A stretch of 64,000 nt of DNA from an uncultured Acidobacteriota bacterium (lineage in GTDB: Bacteria > Acidobacteriota > Vicinamibacteria > Vicinamibacterales > JAKQTR01): contig CAWEJS010000002.1 in NCBI GenBank assembly GCA_963809475.1, positions 471,722 to 535,721 of the forward strand, given 5' to 3'. Shown in pieces: positions 2,627 through 63,617 of the stretch. Below the pieces are notes generated by a model that worked only from the letters and a program-made list of their open reading frames with translations, searched no databases and was not told where the DNA came from. A program made the translations under genes and the position numbers. Each line of letters opens with the position of its first letter. Position 1 is the first letter of the stretch.

Positions 2627-3825
2627 GGCCACAGGATCGACCCTTCCCGCCGCATCGGCAGGTCCTCCAGCCGCAGCCGGCGCAGGGCCTCGTAGCGAGG
2701 CTTCATCTCGGCCAGGGAGTCGCCGCCAAGCTTCTCGAGGAGCGCGTCCGCAATCACGACGCACACCATCGCCTCGCCGACGACGGCAGCGCGAGGCACG
2801 GCGCAGATGTCCGATCGCACGTGGCGGGCGGCGGACACGGCGCCGGTCGCCAGATCGACCGATCGAAGAGAGGCCGTCATCGTGGCGATCGGCTTCATCG
2901 CCGCGCGCACGACGAGCGGCTGGCCGTTCGTGATGCCGCCTTCCAGGCCGCCTGCGCGGTTGCTCCCGCGGACCAGACGCGATCCGTCGTCCGCGAGACC
3001 GAGTTCGTCGTGGACAGCCGTGCCGGGCAACCGCGCGTTCGTGAAGGCCTCGCCGATCTCGACCCCCTTGATCGCAGGGATGCTCATCAGCGCGGCCGCG
3101 AGCCTGGCTGTCAGGCGGCGATCCCAGTGCACGTGGCTGCCAAGCCCCGGAGGCACGCCGCAGGCGACCACGTCGAACACGCCCCCGACCGTATCACCCT
3201 CCCTGGCAGCCTCGCTGATGCGTTGGGCCATCGCGGCCGTACCCGACGCGGTCGGGCACGCCAGGTCGGAGAGCGCTGCCTGCTCCAGCCTGGCTTCGAG
3301 GGACATCGCAGACAGATCCGCCGCCACGCCGCCGATTTCGGCGACGTAGCTGCCCACCGAGACGCCGAATTCCACGAGGAGCTTCCGGCAGATCGCGCCG
3401 ACGGCGACACGCGCCGCGGTCTCGCGCGCTGATGACCGTTCGAGACCGAATTGCAGGTCCGTGTAGCCGTACTTCAAGGCGGCGGCGAGATCGGCGTGTC
3501 CCGGGCGGGGCACCGTCATCGGCTCGACGGCGCGTCCTTTCCAGTTCGCGTGATCACGGTTGCCGACCTGGACGGCAATCGGGGCGCCGGTCGTGACGCC
3601 ATCCAGCACGCCGCCGAGTATCTCGAGGGAGTCGTGCTCGAGGCTCATTCGCGGACTTGCGCCTCGATACGGACGGCCAGCCGGGCCGAGACCCCGGCGC
3701 CGCGCCAGATCCGGATCAATGTCGGCGGCGCTCATCGCGAGCCCCGCAGGCATCCCCTCCAGGATTGCGACGACTGAGGGTCCGTGCGATTCGCCGGCGG
3801 TCAGGAACCGGAGCCTCGAGTTCAT
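2623..3825 (-). CDS. aroC: chorismate synthase
   Basis: MNSRLRFLTAGESHGPSVVAILEGMPAG is a typical AroC N-terminus, and the length fits. ATG 3825 overlaps the aroA stop (ATGA). Confidence 0.95.
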   Translation of the reverse strand: MNSRLRFLTAGESHGPSVVAILEGMPAGLAMSAADIDPDLARRRGLGPAGRPYRGASPRMSLEHDSLEILGGVLDGVTTGAPIAVQVGNRDHANWKGRAVEPMTVPRPGHADLAAALKYGYTDLQFGLERSSARETAARVAVGAICRKLLVEFGVSVGSYVAEIGGVAADLSAMSLEARLEQAALSDLACPTASGTAAMAQRISEAAREGDTVGGVFDVVACGVPPGLGSHVHWDRRLTARLAAALMSIPAIKGVEIGEAFTNARLPGTAVHDELGLADDGSRLVRGSNRAGGLEGGITNGQPLVVRAAMKPIATMTASLRSVDLATGAVSAARHVRSDICAVPRAAVVGEAMVCVVIADALLEKLGGDSLAEMKPRYEALRRLRLEDLPMRREGSILWP

Positions 3826-5138
3826 CCTGCCTCCAACCTCTCTGCGGCCGACAAGGACTGCTGCACGCGCAACCCGTCGAGCACCTCGAAGTACCTCGGG
3901 AACGTCTTGGACACACACGAGGGATTCTCGATGGACACACCGGGGACACGAAGGCCCACGAGCGCAAACGCCATCGCCATGCGATGGTCGCCGTACGTGC
4001 GGATGGTGGCCGCGCGCATCTCGCGGCAGGGCTGAATCACGAATCCGTCCGCCCGCTCTTGAACCGCGACGCCGAGTCTCGAGAGTTCCCTGCAGGTCGC
4101 CGACACCCTGTCACATTCCTTGAGACGGGCCGAAGCAATGCCGCGCACCGTGGTCGGCGAGCCGGCGAACGGCGCGACAGCCGCGAGCGTCTGGGCCGTG
4201 TCGGGAATGTCGCCCAGGTCCACATCGACGCCTCGCAACTCCCGCGATCCGGTCACCTGAACCCAGCCGCCGCCTTCCTCGACCCGGCATCCCATGGCCG
4301 ACAGGACGTCCAGAAACTGGATGTCTCCCTGCCGCGAGCCGCGCGAGATCTTCTCGACTCTCACCGTGCCGCCTGCGATGGCGGCCGCGCCGAAGAAATA
4401 GGAGGCGGCCGAAGCGTCGCTCTCGACGTCGAAGACGGGCCGGCCGCGATACCGGCCGCAGGGGACGGCGAAACGCCGATACCCGTCGCGCGCGACTTCG
4501 ATGCCGAAGTCGGCCATGACGGCCAGTGTCATGTCGACGTAGGGCTTCGAGGACAGCGGCCGGCCAACCACCACCTCCACCGGTGACCGCGCGTACGGCG
4601 CAACGAGCAGGAGAGCGCTCACGAACTGGCTGCTCGTGTCCCCGTCAATGGCCGCCCGCCCGCCGGCCAGGCCATTCGCCTGGACCCGGACGGGCGGGCA
4701 GCCCGTCGGACACTCGATGGCGGCGCCGAGTTGTCTCAGGCCGTCGAGGAGATCCCCGATCGGCCGCTCACGCATCCGCGGACTTCCGTCGACCACGAAG
4801 TCGCCAGACCCGAGCGTCGTGAGCGCCACGAGAAAGCGAGCCGCCGTTCCGGCGTTCCCAACGTCAAGCCTGGCGCCGCAAACGGGAATGCGTCCCCCAA
4901 ACCCGTCCACGCCCGTGGTTCCGGCACCGCCTGCGCCGACATTCACGGAGAAACCCAACTGCTCGAGCGACTCGACCATGCGGACCGTGTCGTCGGCCAC
5001 CAACACATTCGTCAGCACCGTCGAACCCTCGGCGAGCGCGGCGACCACCAACGCGCGGTTCGTCAGACTCTTCGAGCCAGGCACGCTGACGGAGGCGCGA
5101 AGGAGATGGCCGACGGGAGCGATCGCGGCGGTGTCCAC
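3822..5138 (-). CDS. aroA: 3-phosphoshikimate 1-carboxyvinyltransferase (EPSP synthase)
   Basis: The LPGSKSLTNRAL-type motif (VPGSKSLTNRALVVAALAEG) is present, and the 438-aa length fits. Confidence 0.95.
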   Translation of the reverse strand: MDTAAIAPVGHLLRASVSVPGSKSLTNRALVVAALAEGSTVLTNVLVADDTVRMVESLEQLGFSVNVGAGGAGTTGVDGFGGRIPVCGARLDVGNAGTAARFLVALTTLGSGDFVVDGSPRMRERPIGDLLDGLRQLGAAIECPTGCPPVRVQANGLAGGRAAIDGDTSSQFVSALLLVAPYARSPVEVVVGRPLSSKPYVDMTLAVMADFGIEVARDGYRRFAVPCGRYRGRPVFDVESDASAASYFFGAAAIAGGTVRVEKISRGSRQGDIQFLDVLSAMGCRVEEGGGWVQVTGSRELRGVDVDLGDIPDTAQTLAAVAPFAGSPTTVRGIASARLKECDRVSATCRELSRLGVAVQERADGFVIQPCREMRAATIRTYGDHRMAMAFALVGLRVPGVSIENPSCVSKTFPRYFEVLDGLRVQQSLSAAERLEAG

Positions 5139-5144
5139 GGCTGA

Positions 5145-6062
5145 TCACGGGCTCCGGCGCATCGAGTTCGAATCGGTGACGCGACGGCGGGCAGCCGCGC
5201 ACATCCGTTCACGCCACATCTGTGCCTCGTCGAAGACCCGCTCGAGCGGAAGCGCGGTGGCGGCGTGCGTCTTCATGTGGTCGAGCGCCCCGATCAACTC
5301 GTCCAGCGCGACGCGGATGTTGTCCGCGTTTGTCAGGCAGATGTCGCGCCAGATCTCGAACGAGCTGTCCGCAAGCCGGGTCGTGTCCACGAGTCCGGGG
5401 CCGGCAAGCTCGAGACCCGCGTCCCCCGCCCCTTCGCCAGCCACGCGCATCAGGGCCGACGCCGCCAGTTGCGGAAGGTGGCTGATGAAGGCCAGGACGC
5501 GGTCGTGCTCGGCTGCACTCATCACGTGCGGCTCGGCGCCGAGCGTCCTCACGAACGCGCACAGCCGCGCCAGGACCTCGGGCGGCGTGCCTCCCTCAGG
5601 CGTGAGCACCCAGGGCCGCGCCGAGAAGAGGTCGGCCGTCGCCGCGTCGATCCCGCGCGAAGCCGCGCCGGCAATCGGATGCCCACCGACGAACGTGAGC
5701 GATCCGCCCGTGCCGCGCGCCGCGTCGACCATGACCCGCTTCGTGCTGCCGACATCGGTCACGATGGTGGCCGGGGAGACGTGACGGGCCACCTGCCTGA
5801 CGAGCTCGACGTTCTGCCGAACGGGCGCCGCCAGGATCACCAGGTCGGCCCTGGCGACGCTGTCGAGTTGCTCCGACGCGACGTCAACGACGCCGCGATC
5901 CAGGGCCGTGCGAAGCACGTCAGCCCGGTCGATCCCGGCAATGGCGGTGGCAGGCCGTGCTCTGCGGATGCCCAGCGCGATCGATCCGCCGACGAGCCCG
6001 AGGCCGACGATGGCAATGCGTTCAAATTCGGCGCCAGCCACGCCCGAGTCGGCTTCACTCAT
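5145..6062 (-). CDS. tyrA: prephenate dehydrogenase
   Basis: An N-terminal Rossmann motif (IAIVGLGLVGGS) and GGHPIAG are present. Operon context supports the call. Confidence 0.85.
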   Translation of the reverse strand: MSEADSGVAGAEFERIAIVGLGLVGGSIALGIRRARPATAIAGIDRADVLRTALDRGVVDVASEQLDSVARADLVILAAPVRQNVELVRQVARHVSPATIVTDVGSTKRVMVDAARGTGGSLTFVGGHPIAGAASRGIDAATADLFSARPWVLTPEGGTPPEVLARLCAFVRTLGAEPHVMSAAEHDRVLAFISHLPQLAASALMRVAGEGAGDAGLELAGPGLVDTTRLADSSFEIWRDICLTNADNIRVALDELIGALDHMKTHAATALPLERVFDEAQMWRERMCAAARRRVTDSNSMRRSP

Positions 6063-7218
6063 GCGGTGTCCCCTGCTCGTCGCCGGTTGACCGGCCGGAC
6101 CAGCCTGATCGTGCGTCCGCAGCCTGCTGCCGGCCGGCCGTCCAGCCCCGCCTCGCGGTCGGCTCGACGCAGATGCGCCGGCCGATGGCCGGCGCGATGA
6201 TCCGGAGTTCGGCCATCAGCCGATCGAACTGATCCGGGTAGAGCGACTGCGCGCCGTCGCTCAGCGCGTGGTCCGCGTCGCAGTGCACCTCGACGAGCAG
6301 GCCGTCAGCGCCGGCCGCGACAGCCGCGCGCGCCATTGGCACGACCTTGTCGCGCCGGCCGGTTCCATGGCTCGGATCCACGATAATCGGCAGGTGGCTC
6401 AGCTTCTTGACGACAGGAATCGCCGAGAGGTCGAGCGTGTTGCGTGTGGCGCTCTCGAAGGTGCGGATCCCCCGTTCGCACAAGACGACCGCTTCGTTCC
6501 CGCCGCTCAGCAGGTATTCGGCCGAGAGCAGCCATTCCTCGATCGTCGCTGAGATGCCGCGCTTGAGCAGGACCGGCTTGCGCGCATGGCCCAGCTCGCG
6601 GAGCAGGGTGTAGTTCTGCATGTTCCTCGCGCCGACCTGGAGCATGTCCGCGTAGCGGTCGACGATCTCGATCTGGGTGATGTCCATGACCTCGGACACC
6701 AGTTTCAGATCGTGCTGGTTCGCCGCCGCCCGGAGCATGCGCAGCCCGTCCTCGCCGAGGCCCTGGAAGCTGTACGGCGAACTGCGCGGCTTGAACGCGC
6801 CGCCTCGCATGATCTTCGCCCCCGCCCGCTTCACCGCCGCGGCCGTGGCCTCCACCTGCTCGTCGGTTTCCGCCGAGCAGGGACCCGCCATCACGATCAC
6901 CTCGCTGCCGCCGATCCGCACGTCCCCCACGGCAACGACGGTCCCGTCGGGCTTGAACGTGCGGCTCGCGAGCTTGTACGGCTCGGTGATCCGCAGCACC
7001 TCGAACACGCCGCTCAGGATTTCGATGCGTTCCGGCTCGACCGATCTCGTGCCTCCCACCGCTCCGAGCACGGTCCGCGAGGTGCCTGTCGAGCGGTGCA
7101 CCGCGAGACCCATCTCGACCAGCCGGGCGATCACCTGTTCGATCTGATCCTCGCTCGCTCGTTCTTCCATGACGACCACCACGGCAAGCTCCTTTCCCTG
7201 TGTCCACGCCACGCTCAC
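6055..7218 (-). CDS. 3-deoxy-7-phosphoheptulonate (DAHP) synthase, type I-beta with N-terminal ferredoxin-like/ACT-like regulatory domain
   Basis: The core matches the KDO8PS-like DAHPS family (GAFKPRSSPYSFQGLG, LLKRG, DPSH). An extra N-terminal domain of about 70 aa (VVVMEERASEDQIEQVIARLVEMG) resembles Thermotoga-type enzymes. An unusual C-terminal tail of about 35 aa overlaps the tyrA start by 8 nt. Confidence 0.9.
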   Translation of the reverse strand: MSVAWTQGKELAVVVVMEERASEDQIEQVIARLVEMGLAVHRSTGTSRTVLGAVGGTRSVEPERIEILSGVFEVLRITEPYKLASRTFKPDGTVVAVGDVRIGGSEVIVMAGPCSAETDEQVEATAAAVKRAGAKIMRGGAFKPRSSPYSFQGLGEDGLRMLRAAANQHDLKLVSEVMDITQIEIVDRYADMLQVGARNMQNYTLLRELGHARKPVLLKRGISATIEEWLLSAEYLLSGGNEAVVLCERGIRTFESATRNTLDLSAIPVVKKLSHLPIIVDPSHGTGRRDKVVPMARAAVAAGADGLLVEVHCDADHALSDGAQSLYPDQFDRLMAELRIIAPAIGRRICVEPTARRGWTAGRQQAADARSGWSGRSTGDEQGTPHE

Positions 7219-7538
7219 CTGTCCGGGCCGCTGACTGGCGCCGGACCGGCGCGCCCGCCCTCGCGAGCGGTGCCGCCGGCCATCTCGAGCTGGCGCGCCT
7301 CGTCGATGATCCGCTCGAAGAGCCGGCCGATGGCCTCTTCCGTCAGCGGCCCGCCCAGGTTCGCCGTGATCGCGCGCGCGCGGCGCACGACCGCCGCCTC
7401 CCGGTCGGGTTCGTAGATCGGCGAACCGCGCTCCCGTTTCAGCCGGCCAATTTCGATGGCGCAGGCGGCGCGAGTGTTCAGCAGCGCCACGAGCTGCTCG
7501 TCAATCACGTCGATTCGCTCCCGCAGTTCGTCGATCAT
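7215..7538 (-). CDS. chorismate mutase (AroQ class)
   Basis: MIDELRERIDVIDEQLVALLNTRAACAIEIGRLK... is a typical CM type II helix. ATG 7538 overlaps the trpA stop (ATGA), and the stop overlaps the DAHPS GTG start (GTGA). Confidence 0.85.
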   Translation of the reverse strand: MIDELRERIDVIDEQLVALLNTRAACAIEIGRLKRERGSPIYEPDREAAVVRRARAITANLGGPLTEEAIGRLFERIIDEARQLEMAGGTAREGGRAGPAPVSGPDR

Positions 7539-8368
7539 GATTCCTCGCCCGCTGTCGCGCCTCGATCGGTCCCTTCGCCGAGCAGCCACCGCACGTGGCC
7601 CCGCACCCGTTCCTCCAGGTCCGGTTCATTTCCGGCCTCCGCGATGACGCTCACGATGCTGCTGCCGACAACCGCGGCGTCGGCCGAGCGGCAGACTTCG
7701 CGGACCTGATCCGGATGCGAGATGCCAAAGCCGAGCGCAACAGGCAGCTGGCTCTCCGCCCGGATCCGGCCGACCAGATCTCGCGAGCCGGGGGGCAGCG
7801 ACGCTCGCGCGCCAGTGACGCCGAGCCGGGAGATGGCGTACAGGAACCCGCTCCCGAGCGCTGCCGCCTCTTGGATCCGCTCGGTGCTGGTGGTCGGGCT
7901 GATCAGGAAGATCACGTCGATTCCGGCGCGCGCCAGGGCCGCGCGAGCCTCTCCCGCTTCTTCGATCGGGAGGTCCAGCACGAGTACGCCGTCGACGCCT
8001 GCCTTTGCCGCGATCTCGGCAAACCGTTCGATGCCGAGCCGGAAGATCGGGTTTGCATAGCTGAACAGCACCAGCGGCGCGCTGAGTCTCGGCCTGACTT
8101 GCGCGACGAGATCGATCACCGCTCCGAGCGTCGTGCCGGCCGCCAGCGACCGCTCCGCCGCACGCTGGATGACCGGGCCGTCGGCGACAGGATCGGAGAA
8201 CGGCACGCCGATCTCGATCACGCTCGCCCCGGCGGTCTCGAGCGCCACGAGAATCTCGCCCGAGCGATCGAGATCCGGGTCACCGGCGGTGACGTAGGTC
8301 ACAAGCTTCGGGCGTATTTGCAGGCGCAGACGATCGAAGGTGGAGGACAGGCGTGACATCATCAGCAC
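7535..8368 (-). CDS. trpA: tryptophan synthase alpha chain
   Basis: The TrpA family sequence reads through (VTAGDPD, IEIGVPFSDPVADGPVIQ). The start is GTG 8368, or ATG 8362/8359. Confidence 0.93.
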   Translation of the reverse strand: MLMMSRLSSTFDRLRLQIRPKLVTYVTAGDPDLDRSGEILVALETAGASVIEIGVPFSDPVADGPVIQRAAERSLAAGTTLGAVIDLVAQVRPRLSAPLVLFSYANPIFRLGIERFAEIAAKAGVDGVLVLDLPIEEAGEARAALARAGIDVIFLISPTTSTERIQEAAALGSGFLYAISRLGVTGARASLPPGSRDLVGRIRAESQLPVALGFGISHPDQVREVCRSADAAVVGSSIVSVIAEAGNEPDLEERVRGHVRWLLGEGTDRGATAGEES

Positions 8369-12188: not shown

Positions 12189-12758
<570 letters not shown>

Positions 12759-14268: not shown

Positions 14269-15753
14269 TCACTCTCCTGAAACTGAAGAGGTCCGATCGC
14301 GGCTGGCCACGGCGGTTCCGGCCGCGAGACGGCGCCCGGCGGCGGCGCGCATGGCCGCCACGGGCGCCGCGCGCCCGTTCCACCACTCGGCCTGCAGCGC
14401 GGCCTGTGCGACCAGCATGGGAAACCCGCCAATCGTCCTGCACCCGGCTGCCCTCGCCTCGCGGAGCAGCCGCGTTTCGGCTGGGTTGTACACGAGGTCG
14501 TAGACCAGGCCGCCGTCGAGGTGGCTCGCGGGGATCGGGGTCTCGTCGTCGCGGGGGACCGTCCCGACCGGCGTCGCATTGACCAGCAGATCCCACGTGC
14601 CGCATCCGGGGAGCCCGGTGCGGGCGTGGCCACCCACCGCGCGGGCCACCGCCGCCGCGCGCTCGAGTGTCCGGCCATAGACGGTGACGTGCGCGCCGGC
14701 CGAGGCGAGGGCCGCGGCGACCGACCGGGCGGCGCCGCCGCAGCCCAGGATCGCGGCACGCGCGTTCGCCAGATCCTCGCGACCGGCAAGCGGCTCGAGG
14801 AAACCGGCCACATCCGTGTTGCGGCCGATCCACTCGCCTCCCCGGCGGGCGATCGTGTTCACGGCGCCGACTCGCGTGGCCACGTCGTCCAGCCTGTCCA
14901 TCCTGCCTGCGAGGTCGACCTTGAGCGGCGCGGTCACGGCCATGCCTCTCACATCCATCGCTTCGGCAAACGCCAGCACGTCGTCTGCCGAGTCGGAGTG
15001 GAGCGGCACGAAGGCGGCGTCGATGCCAAGTGCGGCGAAACAGGCGTTGTGCAACGCGGGTGAAAGGGAATGGTCGAGCGGCGCGCCGGCGACTCCGTAG
15101 ATCCGCGTTCCGCTCGTGATGGAGCGGAAGCCGTACTCGTCGAGGAGACGGGCCACCGGCAGCTGGCCCGGCGCCGCGTCCCCGGCGTAGGTCCAGCACG
15201 AACCGAACCGCGCGGCGAGCACGCGCGTGGGCAATCCGGCGGCCCCCATGCCCACAACCACCGTCTTCGCCAGCGCGCCCCGTGTCAGATCGAGCAGACG
15301 CAGGCAGTCGCTGAGCCGCCGGACATGGACAGCGAGCTTGATGACTTCCGCCCCTGTGGCTCTCATGGCGGTGCAGATGAGGGCGAGATCGGGCGGCACG
15401 CCGCTGTAATCGTGCACCGACAGCACGAGACCCCTGCCGCCGCGGCACCGGACCAGATCGAGGAATCCGGCCCGCCACTCGACGTCCACGTACGCGGCGC
15501 CCAGCGCGATCGCCTCGGCGAGGATGGCGTGACGTTCCTCTTCGCTTCCGTGGAACTGCCCTCCCTCCCACGCCGGGCGGCAGGTGATGACGAGCGGAGT
15601 GGCGCAGCCGGCGAGCGCGGCCGGAACGTTGACGTCCTGCACACCGTCGAGCCGGAGCTCGATCAGGTCGGCGCCGCGGACGGCGTCGCGGCGACGGCGA
15701 AGTTCTTCCGTCGTGGCGGCCGTGACCGTGGCGCACAGAAGCGGTTCCGTCAT
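14269..15753 (-). CDS. aroDE: bifunctional 3-dehydroquinate dehydratase (type I) / shikimate 5-dehydrogenase (AroD-AroE fusion)
   Basis: The N-terminal 230 aa look like type I DHQase (LIELRLD, ITCR). The C-terminal half is AroE-like (IYGVAGAPLDHSLSPALHN, AILGCGGAARS). ATG 15753 is preceded by GAAGG. Confidence 0.88.
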   Translation of the reverse strand: MTEPLLCATVTAATTEELRRRRDAVRGADLIELRLDGVQDVNVPAALAGCATPLVITCRPAWEGGQFHGSEEERHAILAEAIALGAAYVDVEWRAGFLDLVRCRGGRGLVLSVHDYSGVPPDLALICTAMRATGAEVIKLAVHVRRLSDCLRLLDLTRGALAKTVVVGMGAAGLPTRVLAARFGSCWTYAGDAAPGQLPVARLLDEYGFRSITSGTRIYGVAGAPLDHSLSPALHNACFAALGIDAAFVPLHSDSADDVLAFAEAMDVRGMAVTAPLKVDLAGRMDRLDDVATRVGAVNTIARRGGEWIGRNTDVAGFLEPLAGREDLANARAAILGCGGAARSVAAALASAGAHVTVYGRTLERAAAVARAVGGHARTGLPGCGTWDLLVNATPVGTVPRDDETPIPASHLDGGLVYDLVYNPAETRLLREARAAGCRTIGGFPMLVAQAALQAEWWNGRAAPVAAMRAAAGRRLAAGTAVASRDRTSSVSGE

Positions 15754-15772
15754 TCGGAGCCTTCGGATGAAG

Positions 15773-15808
15773 CAAAAAGCCTCTTCAACCGGTCTGGCTG
15801 AAGAGGCT
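15773..15808 (-). terminator. intrinsic terminator in the 5' leader of the aromatic operon (attenuator terminator)
   Basis: The minus-strand RNA reads AGCCUCUUCA-GCCAGACCGGU-UGAAGAGGCU followed by UUUUGCUU. The stem is a perfect 10 bp, extendable into the loop. It ends 20 nt upstream of the aroDE ATG. Confidence 0.8.
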
Positions 15809-15848
15809 CTGAAGAACTGCCGGTGAAGTTCCAGTCTGGCAGACCCCC

Positions 15849-15989
15849 TCAGTGGTCGATGTCCCTCCACCAATAGGAGCAGGCAACGCCGGAGATCGTC
15901 GACAGACCGCCGCCCGCGCACGGGACGCCGCTCGGAGGCGGCATCCACGGAATCAGCGACGCACGGCGGAGATGTATGTTCACGATCAT
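15849..15989 (-). CDS. candidate leader peptide (46 aa) with Tyr-Trp-Trp near its C-terminus
   Basis: ATG 15989 gives MIVNIHLRRASLIPWMPPPSGVPCAGGGLSTISGVACSYWWRDIDH-stop. Tandem TGG codons lie at 15872-15867, and the stop is at 15851-15849. The ORF sits between a promoter-like element and the terminator. The SD (GGGA) is weak and close to the ATG, so the start is uncertain. Confidence 0.55.
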   Translation of the reverse strand: MIVNIHLRRASLIPWMPPPSGVPCAGGGLSTISGVACSYWWRDIDH

Positions 15990-16005
15990 TCGTCCCAAGC
16001 TCGCG

Positions 16006-16034
16006 ACAGTATCAGAGCTCGCGAGAGGTGTCAA
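16006..16034 (-). promoter_or_regulatory. sigma-70-like promoter of the aromatic operon leader
   Basis: The minus strand reads TTGACA (16034-16029), a 17-nt spacer, then TGa-TACTGT (extended -10, 16011-16006). The predicted TSS is about 10 nt before the leader ATG. Confidence 0.55.
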
Positions 16035-16195
16035 AGACGCTCCCGCCGCGATTGGCGAATCGTGTACCGTGATCTACAATGTCGGCGCGTTCATCATCGA
16101 GCCGGTGCGGGTGAGACTCTCCCGGGAAGGCCGCGCAGCGGCGATGGAGCGACGACCTTGCGCCATGCACCACCGGCGCTGAGAAGGGATACGGG

Positions 16196-16810
16196 ATGGT
16201 GCAGGGAACAGGTGACACGGGTGAGACGAGAGCCTCGGGCCTCCGGCCCGCTTCCGAGGCGGAACGAGAGGAACTGACGGCCCTTGGGATCTTGTCCGGC
16301 GGCGGCGAGCTGCTGGCGCCACCGCCGAAACCCGGCGCCACGTCAACCCGGCCGATGGTCCCGAGGCGCGCCATCACCGCGCATCAGGTCCTCAACGAAG
16401 CCTATGCCTACCCGCGCCCCTCGTCGTTTGCGCGCGGGATTCGCTTCGATCCCGGCGAGACCTCGTTGTTGCTCATCTCGGGAACGGCCAGCGTGGACGA
16501 GGCGGGCCTGACCGCACACGTGGGAAATTTCCGGGCGCAACTCTGGCGCACCTATCGCAACATCACGGCCCTTCTCGCCGCCGAGGGCGCCTCCTGGCAC
16601 GACATCGTCCGCACGACCTGCTATCTGCGCGACATCGAGCGCGACTACAGGGATTTCAACGACATCCGCACGGCGTTCTTCGGGTGGCTCGGGCTCGATC
16701 CGCTTCCGGCCAGCACCGGCATCCAGGCGAGGCTGTGCCGCGAGGATCTGCTGGTCGAGATCGAAGCGATTGCCGTCGTGGCCGCCGGGAAGCCGGCTGC
16801 GCGGGTGTGA
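16196..16810 (+). CDS. RidA/YjgF (endoribonuclease L-PSP) fold protein
   Basis: LLISGTASVDEAGL...VGNFRAQLWRTYRNITALLAAEGASWHDIVRTTCYL...PASTGIQA...LLVEIEAIAV fits the YjgF/RidA-fold pattern. The start is uncertain: 16196 or the internal ATG 16355. Confidence 0.7.
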   Translation: MVQGTGDTGETRASGLRPASEAEREELTALGILSGGGELLAPPPKPGATSTRPMVPRRAITAHQVLNEAYAYPRPSSFARGIRFDPGETSLLLISGTASVDEAGLTAHVGNFRAQLWRTYRNITALLAAEGASWHDIVRTTCYLRDIERDYRDFNDIRTAFFGWLGLDPLPASTGIQARLCREDLLVEIEAIAVVAAGKPAARV

Positions 16811-16850
16811 GCCTGGCACACGACCCGACCCTGGAGTTAGGATCCCTCTC

Positions 16851-19235
16851 ATGTCGACGCTCCCGAGCCGCACCCGGATCATCTTCGCCGTCATCGCCGT
16901 GATCGTGATCGCCATCGGTGGCGCCGCCGCCGTGACGCGGCTCTGGCCCGGGCAGCCACGCAGCCAGATCACGGTGGACTACCCCCTGGAGGGCGCCCTG
17001 TTCCCGCCCGACTTCGCGCCGCCGACTCTCGAGTGGCGTGATGCGAGTCAGGACGCCAAGGTCTGGACGATCGAGGTCGGCGCCCGCGGAGGGAACGCCC
17101 CGTCTGTGCACGTCACCTCGCGCGGCGAGCCGCCGCAGATCGGGGAAATCGATCAGGGCGCGATCGGCCCGACGAACGAGCTTCCCACGCTCACGCCGAC
17201 GCGCGCCGCGGCGCACACCTGGAAACCGGACGCCGCGACGTGGGAGGCGATCAAGCGGATCGCGACCGGCAGCCCTGCCACCGTCACGATTACCGGCTAC
17301 AGCGGCACGTGGCTGCGGCGCGCCGTGTCTCGCGGACAGGCCACGATTCAGGTGTCGACGGACCCGGTCGGCGCGCCCATCCTCTATCGAGACGTTCCGC
17401 TGCGGCCCACGGCAGGCGAGCGTGGCGTGATCCAGCCGCTCAGCAAGCAGTTGATGCCCCTCATCGCCTGGCGCCTGCGTGACCTGGCCGAGCCGGGCAG
17501 TCGTGTGCTGATGACGGGCCTCCACTCCTGTACAAACTGCCACTCGGTCTCCCGTGACGGCAAGACGATGGGGCTGGACCTCGACGGACCGCGGAACAAC
17601 AAAGGCGTCTACGCGTTGTTCCCGATCCAGCCCGAAGCCGCGATCCGCAAGGAGAACGTCATCGAATGGAGCACGTTCCGCGGCAAGCTGGGCGGCAAGC
17701 TGCGCGTGGCCTTCATGTCGCAGGTCTCGCCGGACGGCCGCTACGTGGTGACGACGATCAGCGATCCCGGCCGCGGCCAGACCGACTTCCAGCGCTGGCA
17801 GAGGCCCGACGACCTGCGCCAGAACTACTACGTCGCGAACTTCACGGACTACCGGTTCCTGCAGGTGTTCTACCCGACGCGCGGGGTCCTGGCTTGGTAC
17901 AGCAAGGCCACCGGCATGCTGAAGCCGCTGCCCGGCGCCGACGACCCCGGCGATGTCCACACGAATGCCACCTGGAGCCCGGACGGGAAGTACCTGGTCT
18001 TCGCTCGCGCCAAGGCGCGGGATTCGTATCCGCCGGGGGTCACGACCGCCACCTACGCCAACGATCCGAACGAGACGCAGATCCAGTACGACCTCTACCG
18101 CATCCCGTTCAACGACGGCCAGGGCGGCACGCCCACGCCGATCGCGGGTGCCTCGGCCAATGGCATGAGCAACAGCTTCCCGAAGATCTCGCCCGACGGA
18201 CGCTGGATCGTCTTCGTGCAGGCGCGCAATGGACAGCTGATGCGTCCTGACGGCAAGCTCTACATCGTTCCGGCCGAGGGCGGCGACGCGCGCCAGATGC
18301 GCGCGAACACCCCGCTGATGAACTCCTGGCACAGCTTCTCCCCCAACGGGCGCTGGATGGTGTTCTCCTCCAAGAGCCGCTCGCCGTACACCCAGATGTT
18401 TCTGACGCACATCGACGCCGAAGGCCACGACACTCCGGCGATCGTGGTCGAGAACAGCACGGCGGCCAACCGCGCGGTGAACATCCCGGAGTTCGTGAAC
18501 ATCCCGAGGGGCGGCCTGCTCAAGATCGACACGCCGGTCGCCGAGTACTTCCGCCTCATCGATCTCGCGTCAGATGCGATGGACGCCGGCCGGAGCGACG
18601 AGGCGCTGCCGCTCCTGAGGCAGGCCGTGGAGTTGAACCCGGGCGACGCGCAGGTCCACAACGAGTACGGATGCGCGCTCGCCGCAGGGGGGCACATCGC
18701 GGATGCGATCGCGCAGTTCCGCGTCGCGATCGGCTTGAGCCCGGACTTCCCCGATGCCCACAACAACCTGGCGTCGTCCCTGGCCCAGAGCGGCCAGACG
18801 GGTGACGCCTTCACCGAGTTCAAGAAGGCCATGGCCCTGCGCCCCGACTACCCCGAGGCGCAAGCGGGACTCGGCGGCCTGCTGACCCTCAGTGGCAGAA
18901 TCAGTGAGGCCATCCCGCTCCTGCTCGAGGCGGTCAAGGGCCGCCCGCAGAATTTCACGGCCCGAATGGGTCTGGCCCTGGCCCTGTCCAAGGCAGGCCG
19001 ACCACAAGAGGCCCTTCCGCATGCCAGGGAGGCCGTCGCTCTCTCGAATGGACAGGACCCGGAGCTCCTCGGCCTGCTCGGCCGGCTCTACGCTCAGACG
19101 GGCAGCACCGCGAACGCGATCGAATCGACACAAAGGGCGTTGGACGTGGCCGTGCACACCGGCGATCTGCGGCTGGTCGACGATCTCCGGGCGCGGCTCG
19201 CCTCGTACCGGGCCGCGACCACCAGTAATCGCTAG
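16851..19235 (+). CDS. membrane-anchored PD40 (TolB-like) beta-propeller / TPR protein with a single CXXCH motif
   Basis: ATG 16851 gives an N-terminal TM helix (IIFAVIAVIVIAIGGAAAV). A CTNCH motif lies at 17529-17543. Four SP(D/N)G(R/K)(Y/W)(V/L/I/M)V(F/T) PD40-type repeats follow. The C-terminal 230 aa are TPR-like repeats. Confidence 0.8.
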   Translation: MSTLPSRTRIIFAVIAVIVIAIGGAAAVTRLWPGQPRSQITVDYPLEGALFPPDFAPPTLEWRDASQDAKVWTIEVGARGGNAPSVHVTSRGEPPQIGEIDQGAIGPTNELPTLTPTRAAAHTWKPDAATWEAIKRIATGSPATVTITGYSGTWLRRAVSRGQATIQVSTDPVGAPILYRDVPLRPTAGERGVIQPLSKQLMPLIAWRLRDLAEPGSRVLMTGLHSCTNCHSVSRDGKTMGLDLDGPRNNKGVYALFPIQPEAAIRKENVIEWSTFRGKLGGKLRVAFMSQVSPDGRYVVTTISDPGRGQTDFQRWQRPDDLRQNYYVANFTDYRFLQVFYPTRGVLAWYSKATGMLKPLPGADDPGDVHTNATWSPDGKYLVFARAKARDSYPPGVTTATYANDPNETQIQYDLYRIPFNDGQGGTPTPIAGASANGMSNSFPKISPDGRWIVFVQARNGQLMRPDGKLYIVPAEGGDARQMRANTPLMNSWHSFSPNGRWMVFSSKSRSPYTQMFLTHIDAEGHDTPAIVVENSTAANRAVNIPEFVNIPRGGLLKIDTPVAEYFRLIDLASDAMDAGRSDEALPLLRQAVELNPGDAQVHNEYGCALAAGGHIADAIAQFRVAIGLSPDFPDAHNNLASSLAQSGQTGDAFTEFKKAMALRPDYPEAQAGLGGLLTLSGRISEAIPLLLEAVKGRPQNFTARMGLALALSKAGRPQEALPHAREAVALSNGQDPELLGLLGRLYAQTGSTANAIESTQRALDVAVHTGDLRLVDDLRARLASYRAATTSNR

Positions 19236-29406: not shown

Positions 29407-29483
29407 TGGCGCGCCCGCCGCGACTCGAACGCGGGACCCCCGGCTTAGAAGGCCGGTGCTCTATCCGGCTGAGCTACGGGCGC
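29407..29483 (-). tRNA. tRNA-Arg (anticodon TCT), CCA encoded
   Basis: The manual cloverleaf is GCGCCCG-TA-GCTC-AGCCGGATA-GAGC-A-CCGGC-CTTCTAA-GCCGG-GGGTC-CCGCG-TTCGAGT-CGCGG-CGGGCGC-G-CCA. Confidence 0.9.
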
Positions 29484-30132: not shown

Positions 30133-30208
30133 GGTGGGTATAGCTCAGCGGTAGAGCGCCGGACTGTGGCTCCGGAAGTCGCGGGTTCGAACCCCGTTAC
30201 CCACCCCA
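30133..30208 (+). tRNA. tRNA-His (anticodon GTG) with encoded G-1 and CCA
   Basis: The cloverleaf is G-GTGGGTA-TA-GCTC-AGCGGTA-GAGC-G-CCGGA-CTGTGGC-TCCGG-AAGTC-GCGGG-TTCGAAC-CCCGT-TACCCAC-C-CCA. Confidence 0.9.
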
Positions 30209-48249: not shown

Positions 48250-50638
48250 TCAGAAGGCGAGGGAGAGCCCGGCGTAGACGTTCCGGCCGGCGGCCGGGAT
48301 GAAGAGCGCCACTCCGCTGTCCACGTAGCCGAACGACGTGTAGCGCCGGTTCAGCAGGTTGTTCATCCGCAGGTCGAGGGCCCAGCGCCCCTTTCCCAGC
48401 ATCCCTGTCACGCGGACCGGCAGCGGCACCTTCGCCGCGGCGTCGACGGTCGTGTAGGAGGGATTCACCCGATCGGCGCGCGCCGTGTTGTCGAGGAAGA
48501 ACCGCCCGGCGTGCCGGAGTGCCATGGAGACCCGGCTCGCGCCGATGTCGGCGTGGGCGGACGCCGACGCCATCACGTCGGGGAACCCGGCCACGCGGTT
48601 CCCGTCGTAGACGGCCGTGCCGCCCTCGAAGTCGTGCTCCCGGTAGCGGACGAAGGTGTTCCGCGCGACGGACAGCGCCGCGTCCAGGCCGATCCGGGCC
48701 GGGAGGCTGACGCTGCCGTCGAACTCCAGGCCGCGGCGCCGGGACCGCGCGCCGTTGCCGTACACCGGCACGCCGTTGTCGTCGAGCGCGCCGGCGTAGA
48801 CGATCTCGTTGCGGAAGTCCATCCAGAACGCATTGGCGCGCAGGCGCCATCTCTTGCGCCGCCACGAGGTCCCCGCCTCGAGGTTCCACACGTCTTCGGG
48901 ATCGAGGATGGCCGGGGCCGTCGCATAGTAGTCCTGCGGATCGTAGAGGTTCCGGAAGAACGGCTCGCGCATGCCGCGGGCCGCGGTGGCGTAGGCGTCG
49001 CCGCCCGCGCCGAGCTTCACCACGACGCCGGCGCGCGGCAGCACGAAGCCGTAGGACCTCGTGAAGGCGACGCCCCTCAACCGGTCCTCGGACATCTCGT
49101 AGGTATGTCGCGAGAGCTGCAGCCCGGCGCTCAGCGTCACGCGTGGCGAAGCCGCCACCCGCGCCGACACGGCCCCGGTGGCGGTGTGCTTGGCCACCCG
49201 GTAGTCGTAGTAGCGGTGGTCCGGTTCGACGCCCGCCGGGTAGTACTGGGCCCAGGTGACCTCGCCGACGTGGTGCGCCCGGTGGAGGCGCCACTCCCCC
49301 GTCACGTCGAGGCCCACGCGCCCGAACTGCCGCGTCCACGACGGCACCCAGCCGGCGTCCCACTCGTCGACGTTCCGGCGCCGCACGAGGTCGCTGCGCG
49401 CAATCGCCGCGCCGTCGGAGCCCCGTGCATCGGGCAGGTCGTACTCGAAGAGCCAGCGCTGCCCGCGGAACTGGTCGTAGTACCCCGACCCCTGGAACGC
49501 GTAGATCGTCTGGCTGAACGTCGACTGATCGGAGAGCCTGACGTCGTGGACGAGCTGGTAGTGCGGCTGGAAGAAGTGGTCGGTCTCGCCGGGCCAGGAG
49601 ATCGGGTTCGTGCGCCGATCGCGACTGGCGTCGCCGGTGAGGCCCCCGTTCAGGGTCTCGCGATCGATGCCGCTGTACGCAAGGTGCGTCCGCTCGGGCC
49701 CGCCGAAGAACACCGCCCGCACGCGCGACCGCTCTCCGAACCGCGCCAGTGACACGTAGTAGTTCCACATGTCGGCCCACGACTGGTCGCGGTAGCCGTC
49801 GGTCGTCAGCCGCGAGTAGCGGGCCGAAAGGGCCCACGCGCCGTGCAGGAGACCGGACTCCCAGACGAGCGACAGCCGGCGCGTGCCGAACGACCCCGCG
49901 CCCGTCTGCATCGAGAACGCCGGCTGCACGGACGGCTGCGCGGTCGTGAAGTCGAGGGCGCCGCCGAGGCCCGAGAGCCCCGTCACGCCGCGTTGCACCT
50001 GCACGTCGCCCGTGGTGGCCAGGAAGTCGGCGAGGTCGATGAAGAACAGCTCGCCCGACTCGGCGTCGTTGAGCGGCGCGGCGTTCAGCATCACGCGGGT
50101 GCGGGCCTGGCCGAACCCCCGAATCGAGAAGTACGAGTAGCCGATGCCGTTGCCGCTGTCGTTCGTCGCGAACACGCCGGGCACGAGCTGCGCCAGCAGC
50201 ATTGCGGGATCCTGGCCCCAGTGCGCGTCGCTGATGGCCTGCCGCGGCACGTTCGAGAACGTCGCGGCGTCCGCCCCCTCGCGGGCGCGGCCGGCCGTCA
50301 CTTCGATGCGGTCGGACACGGTGACGATTGGCGCCAGGCGCACGTCGAGCTGGGTGCCCGGCCGATCGACCACGGCCCGCTGAACGTAGTAGCCGGGGCT
50401 ACGAGACGACCAGCGTCACGCTCCCCGCGGGGCCGGCATCGACGGCAAAGCGTCCGTCGCCGTCCGCGACGACCGACGTTCCGCGATCGGGAATCTCGAC
50501 ACGCGCGGCAACGGGCGCGCCGGTTTCGGCATCGACGATCCGCCCGGTGATGGTCAGGGTCTGCGCCGCGCCCGGGACGACCAGGGCGGGCATGGCAGCG
50601 AGGAAGGCCGCGACGAACAGGAGGCGCGCGAGTTTCAT
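48250..50638 (-). pseudogene. TonB-dependent outer-membrane receptor with N-terminal CarboxypepD_reg-like domain, apparent frameshift near 50399
   Basis: ORF 50399..50638 encodes a signal peptide plus TITGRIVDAETGAPV...SVTLVVS-stop. After a 1-nt shift the text continues SPGYYVQRAVVDRPGTQLDV... into the 707-aa plug plus barrel ORF, which ends ...YAGLSLAF. The large ORF has no signal peptide of its own. Confidence 0.75.
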
Positions 50639-50756
50639 CGTTCCCTACGCCGGTGTGACCCGGATCAGGTTCAAAGGGTGTGATCTCAGCCCCGCGTTGT
50701 GCGGGACACCCCTACGACTGTGGCTGGATGTACTGTGACCCAGGCGCGCGCCGCGG

Positions 50757-52586: not shown

Positions 52587-52660
<74 letters not shown>

Positions 52661-52671
52661 CTCTCGTAATT

Positions 52672-52748
<77 letters not shown>

Positions 52749-63541: not shown

Positions 63542-63617
63542 GGGCCGCTAGCTCAATTGGCAGAGCAGCAGACTCTTAATCTGCGGGTTCACGGTTCGAC
63601 TCCGTGGCGGCTCACCA
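63542..63617 (+). tRNA. tRNA-Lys (anticodon CTT), CCA encoded
   Basis: The cloverleaf is GGGCCGC-TA-GCTC-AATTGGCA-GAGC-A-GCAGA-CTCTTAA-TCTGC-GGGTT-CACGG-TTCGACT-CCGTG-GCGGCTC-A-CCA. Confidence 0.9.

Follow-up and report, generated by a model that had tools for sequence, protein, structure and literature searches.

A candidate Trp/Tyr leader-peptide attenuator at the head of an aromatic amino acid operon in Acidobacteriota

At the locus examined here, a perfect terminator-like hairpin stands directly before a cluster of aromatic amino acid biosynthesis genes. The locus lies in a 64-kb stretch of DNA (64,000 nucleotides, hereafter the window) from an uncultured Acidobacteriota bacterium, in which a short open reading frame (ORF) containing Tyr and Trp codons and then the hairpin precede aroDE, the first gene of the cluster. 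A sequence-only reading of the window had proposed that this leader is a ribosome-mediated attenuator controlling the whole cluster. We analyzed the leader in the window and in related loci, and the in silico results give us high confidence that the element is a classical ribosome-mediated (leader-peptide) transcription attenuator; we infer that it responds to Trp and Tyr and that termination takes place at the hairpin. As judged from the sequence, the leader and terminator would most likely allow this soil bacterium to turn on the 14-gene aromatic operon only when Trp or Tyr runs short. All coordinates are positions in the window, and the leader and operon are read on the minus strand unless a plus strand is given.

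Alternative structures of the window leader

Direct reading confirmed the 46-codon ORF reported at 15989-15849 (MIVNIHLRRASLIPWMPPPSGVPCAGGGLSTISGVACSYWWRDIDH; ATG at 15989, TGA at 15851-15849), which ends in S-Y-W-W-R-D-I-D-H. The regulatory codons are UAU-UGG-UGG (Tyr-Trp-Trp) at 15875-15867, with Tyr at 15875-15873 and the two Trp codons at 15872-15870 and 15869-15867. Across the operon genes, Trp and Tyr account for 0.76% and 1.2% of codons, respectively.

The hairpin downstream of the ORF contains a perfect 10-bp stem formed by AGCCUCUUCA (15808-15799) and UGAAGAGGCU (15787-15778). RNAfold gave a stem of 15 bp (15810-15796 with 15790-15776) with a 5-nucleotide (nt) loop (15795-15791) and an energy of -24.5 kcal/mol. 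We refer to the 5' arm, AGAGCCUCUUCAGCC (15810-15796), as segment 3 and to the 3' arm, GGUUGAAGAGGCUUU (15790-15776), as segment 4. The U-tract, read directly, is UUUUU at 15778-15774, followed by GCUU. The sequence-only reading was right about the perfect stem and about its end approximately 20 nt upstream of the aroDE ATG, but it had carried the U-run one position too far, to 15773, which is a G. We scanned both strands of the 64 kb for perfect stems of at least 9 bp followed by T4 or longer, and this hairpin was the only one found; block-shuffled sequences yielded 0-2. The G+C content of the window is 68.6%, and the two strands combined contain 22 runs of T4 or longer. A generic terminator scan did not call the leader hairpin, probably because the maximal stem absorbs three of the U's. 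The hairpin is located in a divergent intergenic region with no same-strand gene upstream and, since its upstream neighbors are divergent, it would terminate no upstream gene.

A second helix competes for the terminator 5' arm. As had been claimed, C-UGA-GGGGG (15852-15844) is complementary to CCUCUUCAG (15806-15798) over 9 bp, of which 2 are G:U, and folding lengthened this antiterminator helix to CUGAGGGGGUCUG with CAGA.GCCUCUUCAG. Its 5' strand, segment 2 (15859-15838), has the core CUGAGGGGGUCUG at 15852-15840 and contains the leader stop codon UGA (15851-15849). Because both helices use segment 3, the antiterminator and the terminator are mutually exclusive. In folds of the nascent window transcript with the ribosome on UGG, 15852-15840 paired with 15811-15798 at -23 kcal/mol, and with the ribosome on UGA the terminator 5' arm was held by nothing. 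In the minimum free energy (MFE) structure of the untranslated full-length RNA, segment 1 (15890-15866), which carries the Tyr and Trp codons, paired with 15859-15838, and this 1:2 hairpin sequestered both the Trp codons and the antiterminator strand. The whole leader folded more stably than shuffled sequences (z = -3.4). Two mutually exclusive structures that depend on ribosome position were obtained in this way for the window and also for its family of relatives.

The promoter had been placed at 16034-16006 as TTGACA, 17 nt and TGaTACTGT. The -35 hexamer TTGACA was read directly at 16034-16029, and TTGAC(A/G) occurs at the same relative position in approximately 64 of 74 orthologous leaders. 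The extended -10 element TGaTACTGT (TGn plus TAnnnT) is at 16014-16006, with the hexamer TACTGT at 16011-16006 and the 17-nt spacer ending in TGa. The complete TTGACA / TGn / TAnnnT arrangement is kept in approximately 64 of the 74 leaders. The promoter is accordingly present and conserved as described, but its -10 hexamer is weak, identical to TATAAT at 3 of 6 positions, and for this reason a generic promoter scan of the window did not call it. The leader ATG is 16 nt downstream of the -10 hexamer in the window, so the 5' untranslated region would be approximately 10 nt or shorter. Among 64 orthologous leaders with a recognizable promoter, the in-frame ORFs had 22-50 codons, and two lacked a start codon. 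Their in-frame ATG or GTG was most often 9-12 nt past the -10 hexamer, a start position that suggests a leaderless or nearly leaderless ORF.

Conservation of the element among relatives

Relatives were collected by an AroDE protein scan with one genome per species, which gave 13 loci from Acidobacteriota / Vicinamibacterales with 50-57% identity, and by a metagenome scan with the AroDE alignment, which gave 80 further loci with 48-69% identity. The AroDE scan bears out the earlier assignment of the window to an Acidobacteria-type genome. In 85 related loci, aroDE is followed by trpE on its own strand. A covariance model, R1, was built from 74 non-identical leaders, and it matched upstream of aroDE, in the orientation of aroDE, in 86 of the 93 acidobacterial loci. 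In five of the seven loci without a match the upstream DNA was too short to evaluate, leaving 86 of 88 evaluable loci positive. In the window, R1 gave a single match (15875-15770), and pattern searches of the window found no second copy of the terminator/antiterminator module. The orthologous leaders have kept the ORF with its in-frame Trp codons, the terminator, and an antiterminator that covaries. They share a purine-rich block, CUGAAGAGGC or a variant, followed by nearly invariant hairpin arms, (A)GCCUCUUCAGCC / GGUUGAAGAGGCU, and then a U-tract; all aligned leaders have a T-run after the hairpin. No sequence conservation was found in the 5' half of the leader across the aligned orthologues.

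Pairing was counted on alignment A2, which comprises 74 aligned leaders, with slid helices as controls. The 13-pair terminator helix was paired in 96.6% of cells, compared with 31-60% in the controls, and 28 cells had changed on both sides; RNAalifold recovered the terminator, including its 3' arm, independently. The 10-pair antiterminator helix between the purine block and the terminator 5' arm was paired in 92.8% of cells, compared with 38-53%; changes on both sides were counted in 14 cells, and none of 500 shuffles attained the observed percentage paired or the covariation score. At arm column 207, GCCCC arms have C in place of U, and in these leaders G stands in the antiterminator strand as well as in the 3' arm; leaders with CUCUCC arms behave alike. 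Since both partners carry the matching G, the three strands co-vary.

The spacing of these parts is consistent with control by a translating ribosome. The first Trp codon precedes the antiterminator strand by 19-50 nt (19-22 nt in most leaders), the strand begins at least 10 nt past the last Trp codon in all but two leaders, and the stop codon lies between -10 and +17 nt from the 3' end of the strand. For masked folding, the nascent RNA up to the terminator loop was folded with its 5' part masked to 12 nt beyond the A-site. The antiterminator formed in 71 of 74 leaders with the ribosome at the first Trp codon and in 68 with the ribosome at the last, whereas it formed in none of the 74 with the ribosome at the stop codon. 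The full-length MFE structure contained the terminator in 71/74. These results support the stalled-ribosome geometry put forward for the window. Of the checks that the sequence-only reading had suggested, all those open to computation favored its interpretation.

In-frame Trp codons are present in all 74 aligned leaders, and 71 of these have 2-5 of them. Tyr stands beside the Trp codons in most leaders, and the motifs include A-W-W-Y-W, WW(W)YW, W-R-W-Y-W, YWWW, S-Y-W-W-W and G-W-W-Y-Y; Phe joins the aromatic cluster in a few, for example W-W-W-F-F-Y-F. At the position after the Trp pair, 48 leaders have TAT, 10 have TAC and 7 have TGG. For Tyr, TAT is rarer than TAC in this genome (6 vs. 28). 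The synonymous change between TAT and TAC at this aromatic position argues for a decoding constraint. The Trp and Tyr composition of the leaders mirrors that of the operon, which contains the trp genes and tyrA and lacks pheA.

Several results weigh against this interpretation. The antiterminator duplex of the window has an energy of -18.6 kcal/mol, compared with -13.4 ± 2.7 kcal/mol for dinucleotide shuffles, and 39 of 1000 shuffles were as good. Complementarity in this single sequence is only modestly unusual, so its significance rests on conservation across the relatives. In addition, the terminator arm is directly preceded on its 5' side by UUCUUCAG (15816-15809), which nearly duplicates the CUCUUCAG of that arm and is a possible decoy for segment 2; UUCUUCAG occurs only in the window and in its closest relative (L015). 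In the full-length fold with a stalled ribosome, segment 2 paired with this decoy and the terminator still formed. The equilibrium structure of the stalled state is thus still the terminator in the window, and antitermination there would have to be kinetic. Even without a ribosome, the antiterminator still formed in 53 of 74 nascent leaders. A helix that pairs the UGG strand with a CCAC(C/U)GC block farther downstream, the candidate for a 1:2 structure, was only 70% paired at a position that differs between subgroups, and we rejected it as a universal 1:2 structure; nor is the 1:2 helix of the window (15890-15866 / 15859-15838) positionally conserved in other leaders. The weak -10 hexamer (3/6) belongs here as well, as do two evaluable relatives, L010 (1-390) and L060 (420-790), that have no element. 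Finally, canonical terminators are so rare in the window that efficient intrinsic termination by the host RNA polymerase cannot be taken for granted.

Individual loci showed further features. In L060, the distance from aroDE to the start of a divergent gene upstream is only approximately 95 nt, and L010 has a similar appearance; the attenuator would therefore appear to have been lost, or never gained, in one sublineage. Tandem repeats lie between the terminator and aroDE in L012 (CCCGAAT three to four times, at about 2890-2925), in L011 (GGAACCC-type, at about 90-135) and in L043 (GGATATC three times and ATTTGTTTTCGG twice, at about 245-300). L004 (3001-4467), from a metagenome-assembled genome of Vicinamibacterales, has an internal stop in the aroDE frame and an intact leader; the stop is either a sequencing error or a sign of a pseudogene, and the locus was left out of the protein alignment on this account. 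L002 (CAYJPQ010000005.1) is labelled 'uncultured Bifidobacteriaceae bacterium' and carries a Vicinamibacterales-type aroDE with the leader, its AroDE being 55% identical to that of the window; this bin is probably misassigned.

Alternative explanations and known attenuators

The switch between terminator and antiterminator could be real and be set by a trans-acting factor, such as a TRAP-like protein, a T-box-like uncharged tRNA or a metabolite, with the Trp codons kept for RNA pairing. Because UGG is the only Trp codon, decoding and pairing cannot be told apart by the conservation of UGGUGG itself, and the UGG strand is complementary to the CCAC(C/U)GC block in many leaders. The aromatic supraoperon of Bacillus is moreover under TRAP control (PMC1173090). 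The neighboring Tyr codon, however, varies synonymously between TAT and TAC, the UGG:CCAC helix is incompletely paired and its location depends on the subgroup, and the frame of the Trp codons always agrees with that of a start just past the promoter and of a stop within a ribosome footprint of the antiterminator strand (-10 to +17 nt). Nor did a factor-binding region appear: the unconserved 5' half of the leader leaves no aptamer-like domain, and no T-box, riboswitch or other Rfam family was found at the leader at E <= 10. At this threshold, cmscan matched the leader with none of Trp_leader (RF00513), Bacteroid-trp (RF01692) and T-box (RF00230), and in the region 15000-17000 it returned four sub-threshold matches, two to microRNA-precursor and two to small RNA families, none at the leader. 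A TRAP-regulated leader, which would have 9-11 (G/U)AG triplets 2-3 nt apart overlapping the antiterminator, was rejected; the 252-nt leader contains 6 such triplets, none of them spaced 2-3 nt, and the longest chain is 1. We therefore regard control by a trans-acting factor as improbable.

Two other explanations appear even less likely. A TnaC-like nascent arrest peptide would sense free tryptophan in the ribosome and block release at the stop codon. The Trp residues at a fixed distance from the stop and the apparently conserved C-terminus (T/S)EEASALA in many relatives would suit such a peptide. This conservation, however, is at the RNA level without third-position relaxation: no three-base periodicity was found downstream of the Trp block in the aligned leaders, and the non-conservative Glu-to-Gly replacements (GAA to GGA, GAG to GGG) preserve G:U pairing, so that the motif reflects a constraint on the RNA and not on the peptide. 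The tails before the stop also differ wholly between subgroups (RDIDH, QSAEGA, GGAVI and EEEPVS). A TnaC-type arrest peptide, which would keep Trp, Asp and Pro at fixed spacing before the stop, was rejected because the tails vary and codon periodicity is absent. Were a ribosome held at the stop, the antiterminator strand would be covered and termination favored, an effect of the same sign as Trp-replete attenuation that adds no explanatory power; we give arrest very little weight. It is just as hard to credit that the hairpin is a constitutive terminator, an insulator or a chance structure and the short ORF a high-GC artefact. High-GC genomes are full of spurious ORFs, and unannotated ORFs overlap here at 15852-16277 (+) and 16012-16377 (-); the complementarity statistic from the window alone is also weak, as noted above. 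Against this, there is no same-strand upstream gene that needs termination, a constitutive terminator 20 nt ahead of an essential 14-gene biosynthetic cluster would be deleterious, and the ORF, Trp codons, antiterminator and terminator are conserved jointly in 86 loci.

As a leader-peptide attenuator, the element resembles the trpL leaders of Proteobacteria (Rfam Trp_leader RF00513; E. coli, Sinorhizobium) and Actinobacteria (Corynebacterium glutamicum, Streptomyces venezuelae) in its short leader ORF with tandem Trp codons, in the stop codon that adjoins the antiterminator strand, and in the mutually exclusive antiterminator and terminator just before the first biosynthetic gene. A leaderless or near-leaderless ORF is commonly reported for actinobacterial leaders, and the ORF of the window leader likewise appears leaderless or nearly so. 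Unlike the trpL attenuators, to which it has no sequence or structure homology, the element belongs to another phylum, interleaves Tyr and sometimes Phe codons with Trp, lacks an evident conserved 1:2 pause helix in the acidobacterial family, and reaches beyond the trp genes, preceding aroDE, the whole shikimate pathway and tyrA. In Corynebacterium glutamicum, the aroR leader peptide precedes the aroF operon; it contains Phe-Tyr-Phe, and its response is to Phe (Neshat et al. 2014, as summarised in PMC11802643). Both aroR and the window leader are leader-peptide attenuators with aromatic codons ahead of common-pathway (DAHP synthase / shikimate) genes, but the window leader has Trp-Trp and Tyr, and a single attenuator stands before a trp operon fused with the common pathway. 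The actinobacterial trpL and aroR leaders are the closest functional analogues.

Bacteroid-trp is a Trp leader-peptide attenuator of another phylum. The trp-associated motif RF01692 is listed as a likely cis-regulatory RNA of Bacteroidetes (Weinberg et al. 2010, Table 1, PMC2864571). The Firmicutes His leader was predicted computationally as a leader-peptide attenuator (Naville & Gautheret 2010, PMC2965389), and it resembles the window element in being a predicted classical attenuator outside Proteobacteria and Actinobacteria. Classical trpL-type attenuation had been described as established for these two phyla; leader-peptide attenuation is not confined to them. Both Bacteroid-trp and the Firmicutes His leader differ from the window leader in phylum, and their sequences are unrelated to it. 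In a 2010 survey, almost no predicted attenuators of Acidobacteriota had an assigned function (PMC2965389).

Attenuation of a whole aromatic cluster has also been predicted in other bacteria. Attenuator-headed aromatic supraoperons were predicted in Enterococcus, Streptococcus and Desulfovibrio vulgaris, and in Bacillus subtilis the (G/U)AG repeats to which TRAP binds lie within the aro-trp supraoperon, upstream of trpE (PMC1173090). The Bacillus supraoperon resembles the window in having a trp operon inside a larger aromatic cluster with attenuation-type control. The window differs from it in lacking a triplet array in the leader, in placing the sensor at the very head of the cluster, in gene order and in its aroDE and aroKB fusions. 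For Acidobacteria or Vicinamibacteria, no description of a leader peptide of the trp or aromatic type was found in the searchable literature, although the broadest attenuator survey (Lopatovskaya et al. 2010, PMID 20198868) may mention one; Rodionov 2004 (PMC545781) contained nothing relevant to acidobacterial aromatic leaders. The sequence-only reading, too, was aware of no such description for an Acidobacteria-type genome.

The aromatic operon and its predicted control

The first structural gene, aroDE (14269-15753), encodes a fused 3-dehydroquinate dehydratase and shikimate dehydrogenase with the Pfam domains DHquinase_I, Shikimate_dh_N, Shikimate_DH and SDH_C. Its ATG is at 15753, the DHquinase_I match begins 7 residues downstream, and an external gene call gave an identical 494-aa product. 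A Shine-Dalgarno-like GAAGG (15764-15760), identified by reading the sequence, lies 6 nt ahead of the ATG. Another thirteen genes follow, tightly packed, at 14270-1085, their ORFs abutting or overlapping. By Pfam, the gene order on the minus strand is aroDE, trpE, trpG (12189-12758), trpD, trpC, trpF, trpB, trpA (7535-8368), chorismate mutase (CM_2, type II, aroQ; 7215-7589), DAHP synthase (aroF; 6055-7218), tyrA (5145-6062), aroA (3822-5138), aroC and an aroK-aroB fusion (aroKB, 1085-2764). No pheA was found by Pfam among the 14 genes. Pfam therefore bears out all 14 genes that the attenuator had been said to gate, and we infer that one transcript covers them as a single transcription unit. 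The DAHP synthase carries an N-terminal ferredoxin-like domain, DAHP_snth_FXD, which is presumably an allosteric regulatory domain.

In the mechanism that we propose, transcription would begin at the conserved TTGACA / TGnTAnnnT promoter, and the short ORF would come first on the RNA. When charged tRNA-Trp, and probably charged tRNA-Tyr, is plentiful, the ribosome would proceed to the stop codon, which lies inside the purine-rich antiterminator strand in the window and within approximately 17 nt of it in the relatives, and that strand would be blocked by its footprint. The hairpin of GCCUCUUCAG and CUGAAGAGGC, followed by its U-tract, would then form, and RNA polymerase would terminate approximately 20 nt before aroDE. 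When charged tRNA is scarce, the ribosome would stall on UAU-UGG-UGG and leave the antiterminator strand, 17-20 nt downstream, free. The free strand would capture the terminator 5' arm as soon as it is transcribed, no terminator would form, and transcription would continue into aroDE-trpEGDCFBA-aroQ-aroF-tyrA-aroA-aroC-aroKB.

A different arrangement of the start of aroDE was observed in approximately 30 of 77 related loci, including L020, L026, L035, L041, L062-L064, L072, L073, L081 and about 20 others. There the aroDE ATG is just 8-15 nt past the GAGG of the terminator 3' arm, with only U's between them (e.g., GAAGAGGCTTTTTTTATG). Since the 3' arm is the sole Shine-Dalgarno-like sequence in these loci, the terminator hairpin would mask the ribosome-binding site of aroDE and would thereby exert dual control of transcription and translation. 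The Shine-Dalgarno role may explain the extreme conservation of the terminator arm. This arrangement does not apply to the window, where aroDE has its own GAAGG.

The nearest upstream neighbor of the leader is a RidA/L-PSP-like gene (16430-16810, +) divergent from aroDE, and a gene for a TPR/PD40 protein, also an upstream neighbor, lies on the plus strand. A sigma-70-like site, TTGGCG-17-TACAAT at 16052-16080 (+), is oriented outward from the leader and overlaps the DNA immediately upstream of the leader promoter; the divergent RidA-like gene could be transcribed from it. A scan of the whole window at the Rfam gathering threshold returned only a thiamine pyrophosphate (TPP) riboswitch and tRNAs. 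The TPP riboswitch (RF00059) is at 50625-50723 (-) and scored 72.3 bits against a gathering score of 54.3. The five tRNA genes are at 29410-29483 (-), 30134-30205 (+), 52587-52660 (+), 52672-52745 (+) and 63542-63614 (+), two of them adjacent. Because canonical intrinsic terminators are nearly absent from the window, its ordinary gene ends must use another mode of termination.

Taken jointly, these observations allow a broader reading, which is plausible but which we hold tentatively. The element may represent the first leader-peptide attenuator family of Acidobacteriota, in which one essentially leaderless mini-ORF reads the charging of tRNA-Trp and tRNA-Tyr (and of tRNA-Phe in some relatives) and one terminator gates the Trp branch and tyrA along with the common shikimate steps. 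The element would act on both transcription and translation in about 30 loci, and it would imply tight transcription-translation coupling and efficient intrinsic termination in a phylum nearly without canonical terminators.

The element is a new sequence family in a new phylum; its novelty is taxonomic and contextual, not mechanistic, and no new mechanism is revealed. The aromatic operon that it heads is unusually comprehensive. It adds Acidobacteriota, a soil phylum that is abundant but has been little studied, to the range of a textbook control mechanism. The family is ready for use as a covariance model (R1, 74 seed sequences), is absent from Rfam, and would improve the annotation of Vicinamibacteria genomes and metagenomes. 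With this element, transcription-translation coupling, leaderless translation and intrinsic termination could also be tested in a natural setting, a high-GC lineage with otherwise few canonical terminators. For the organism itself, the attenuator predicts that 14 genes of the aromatic pathway are coordinated by one sensor.

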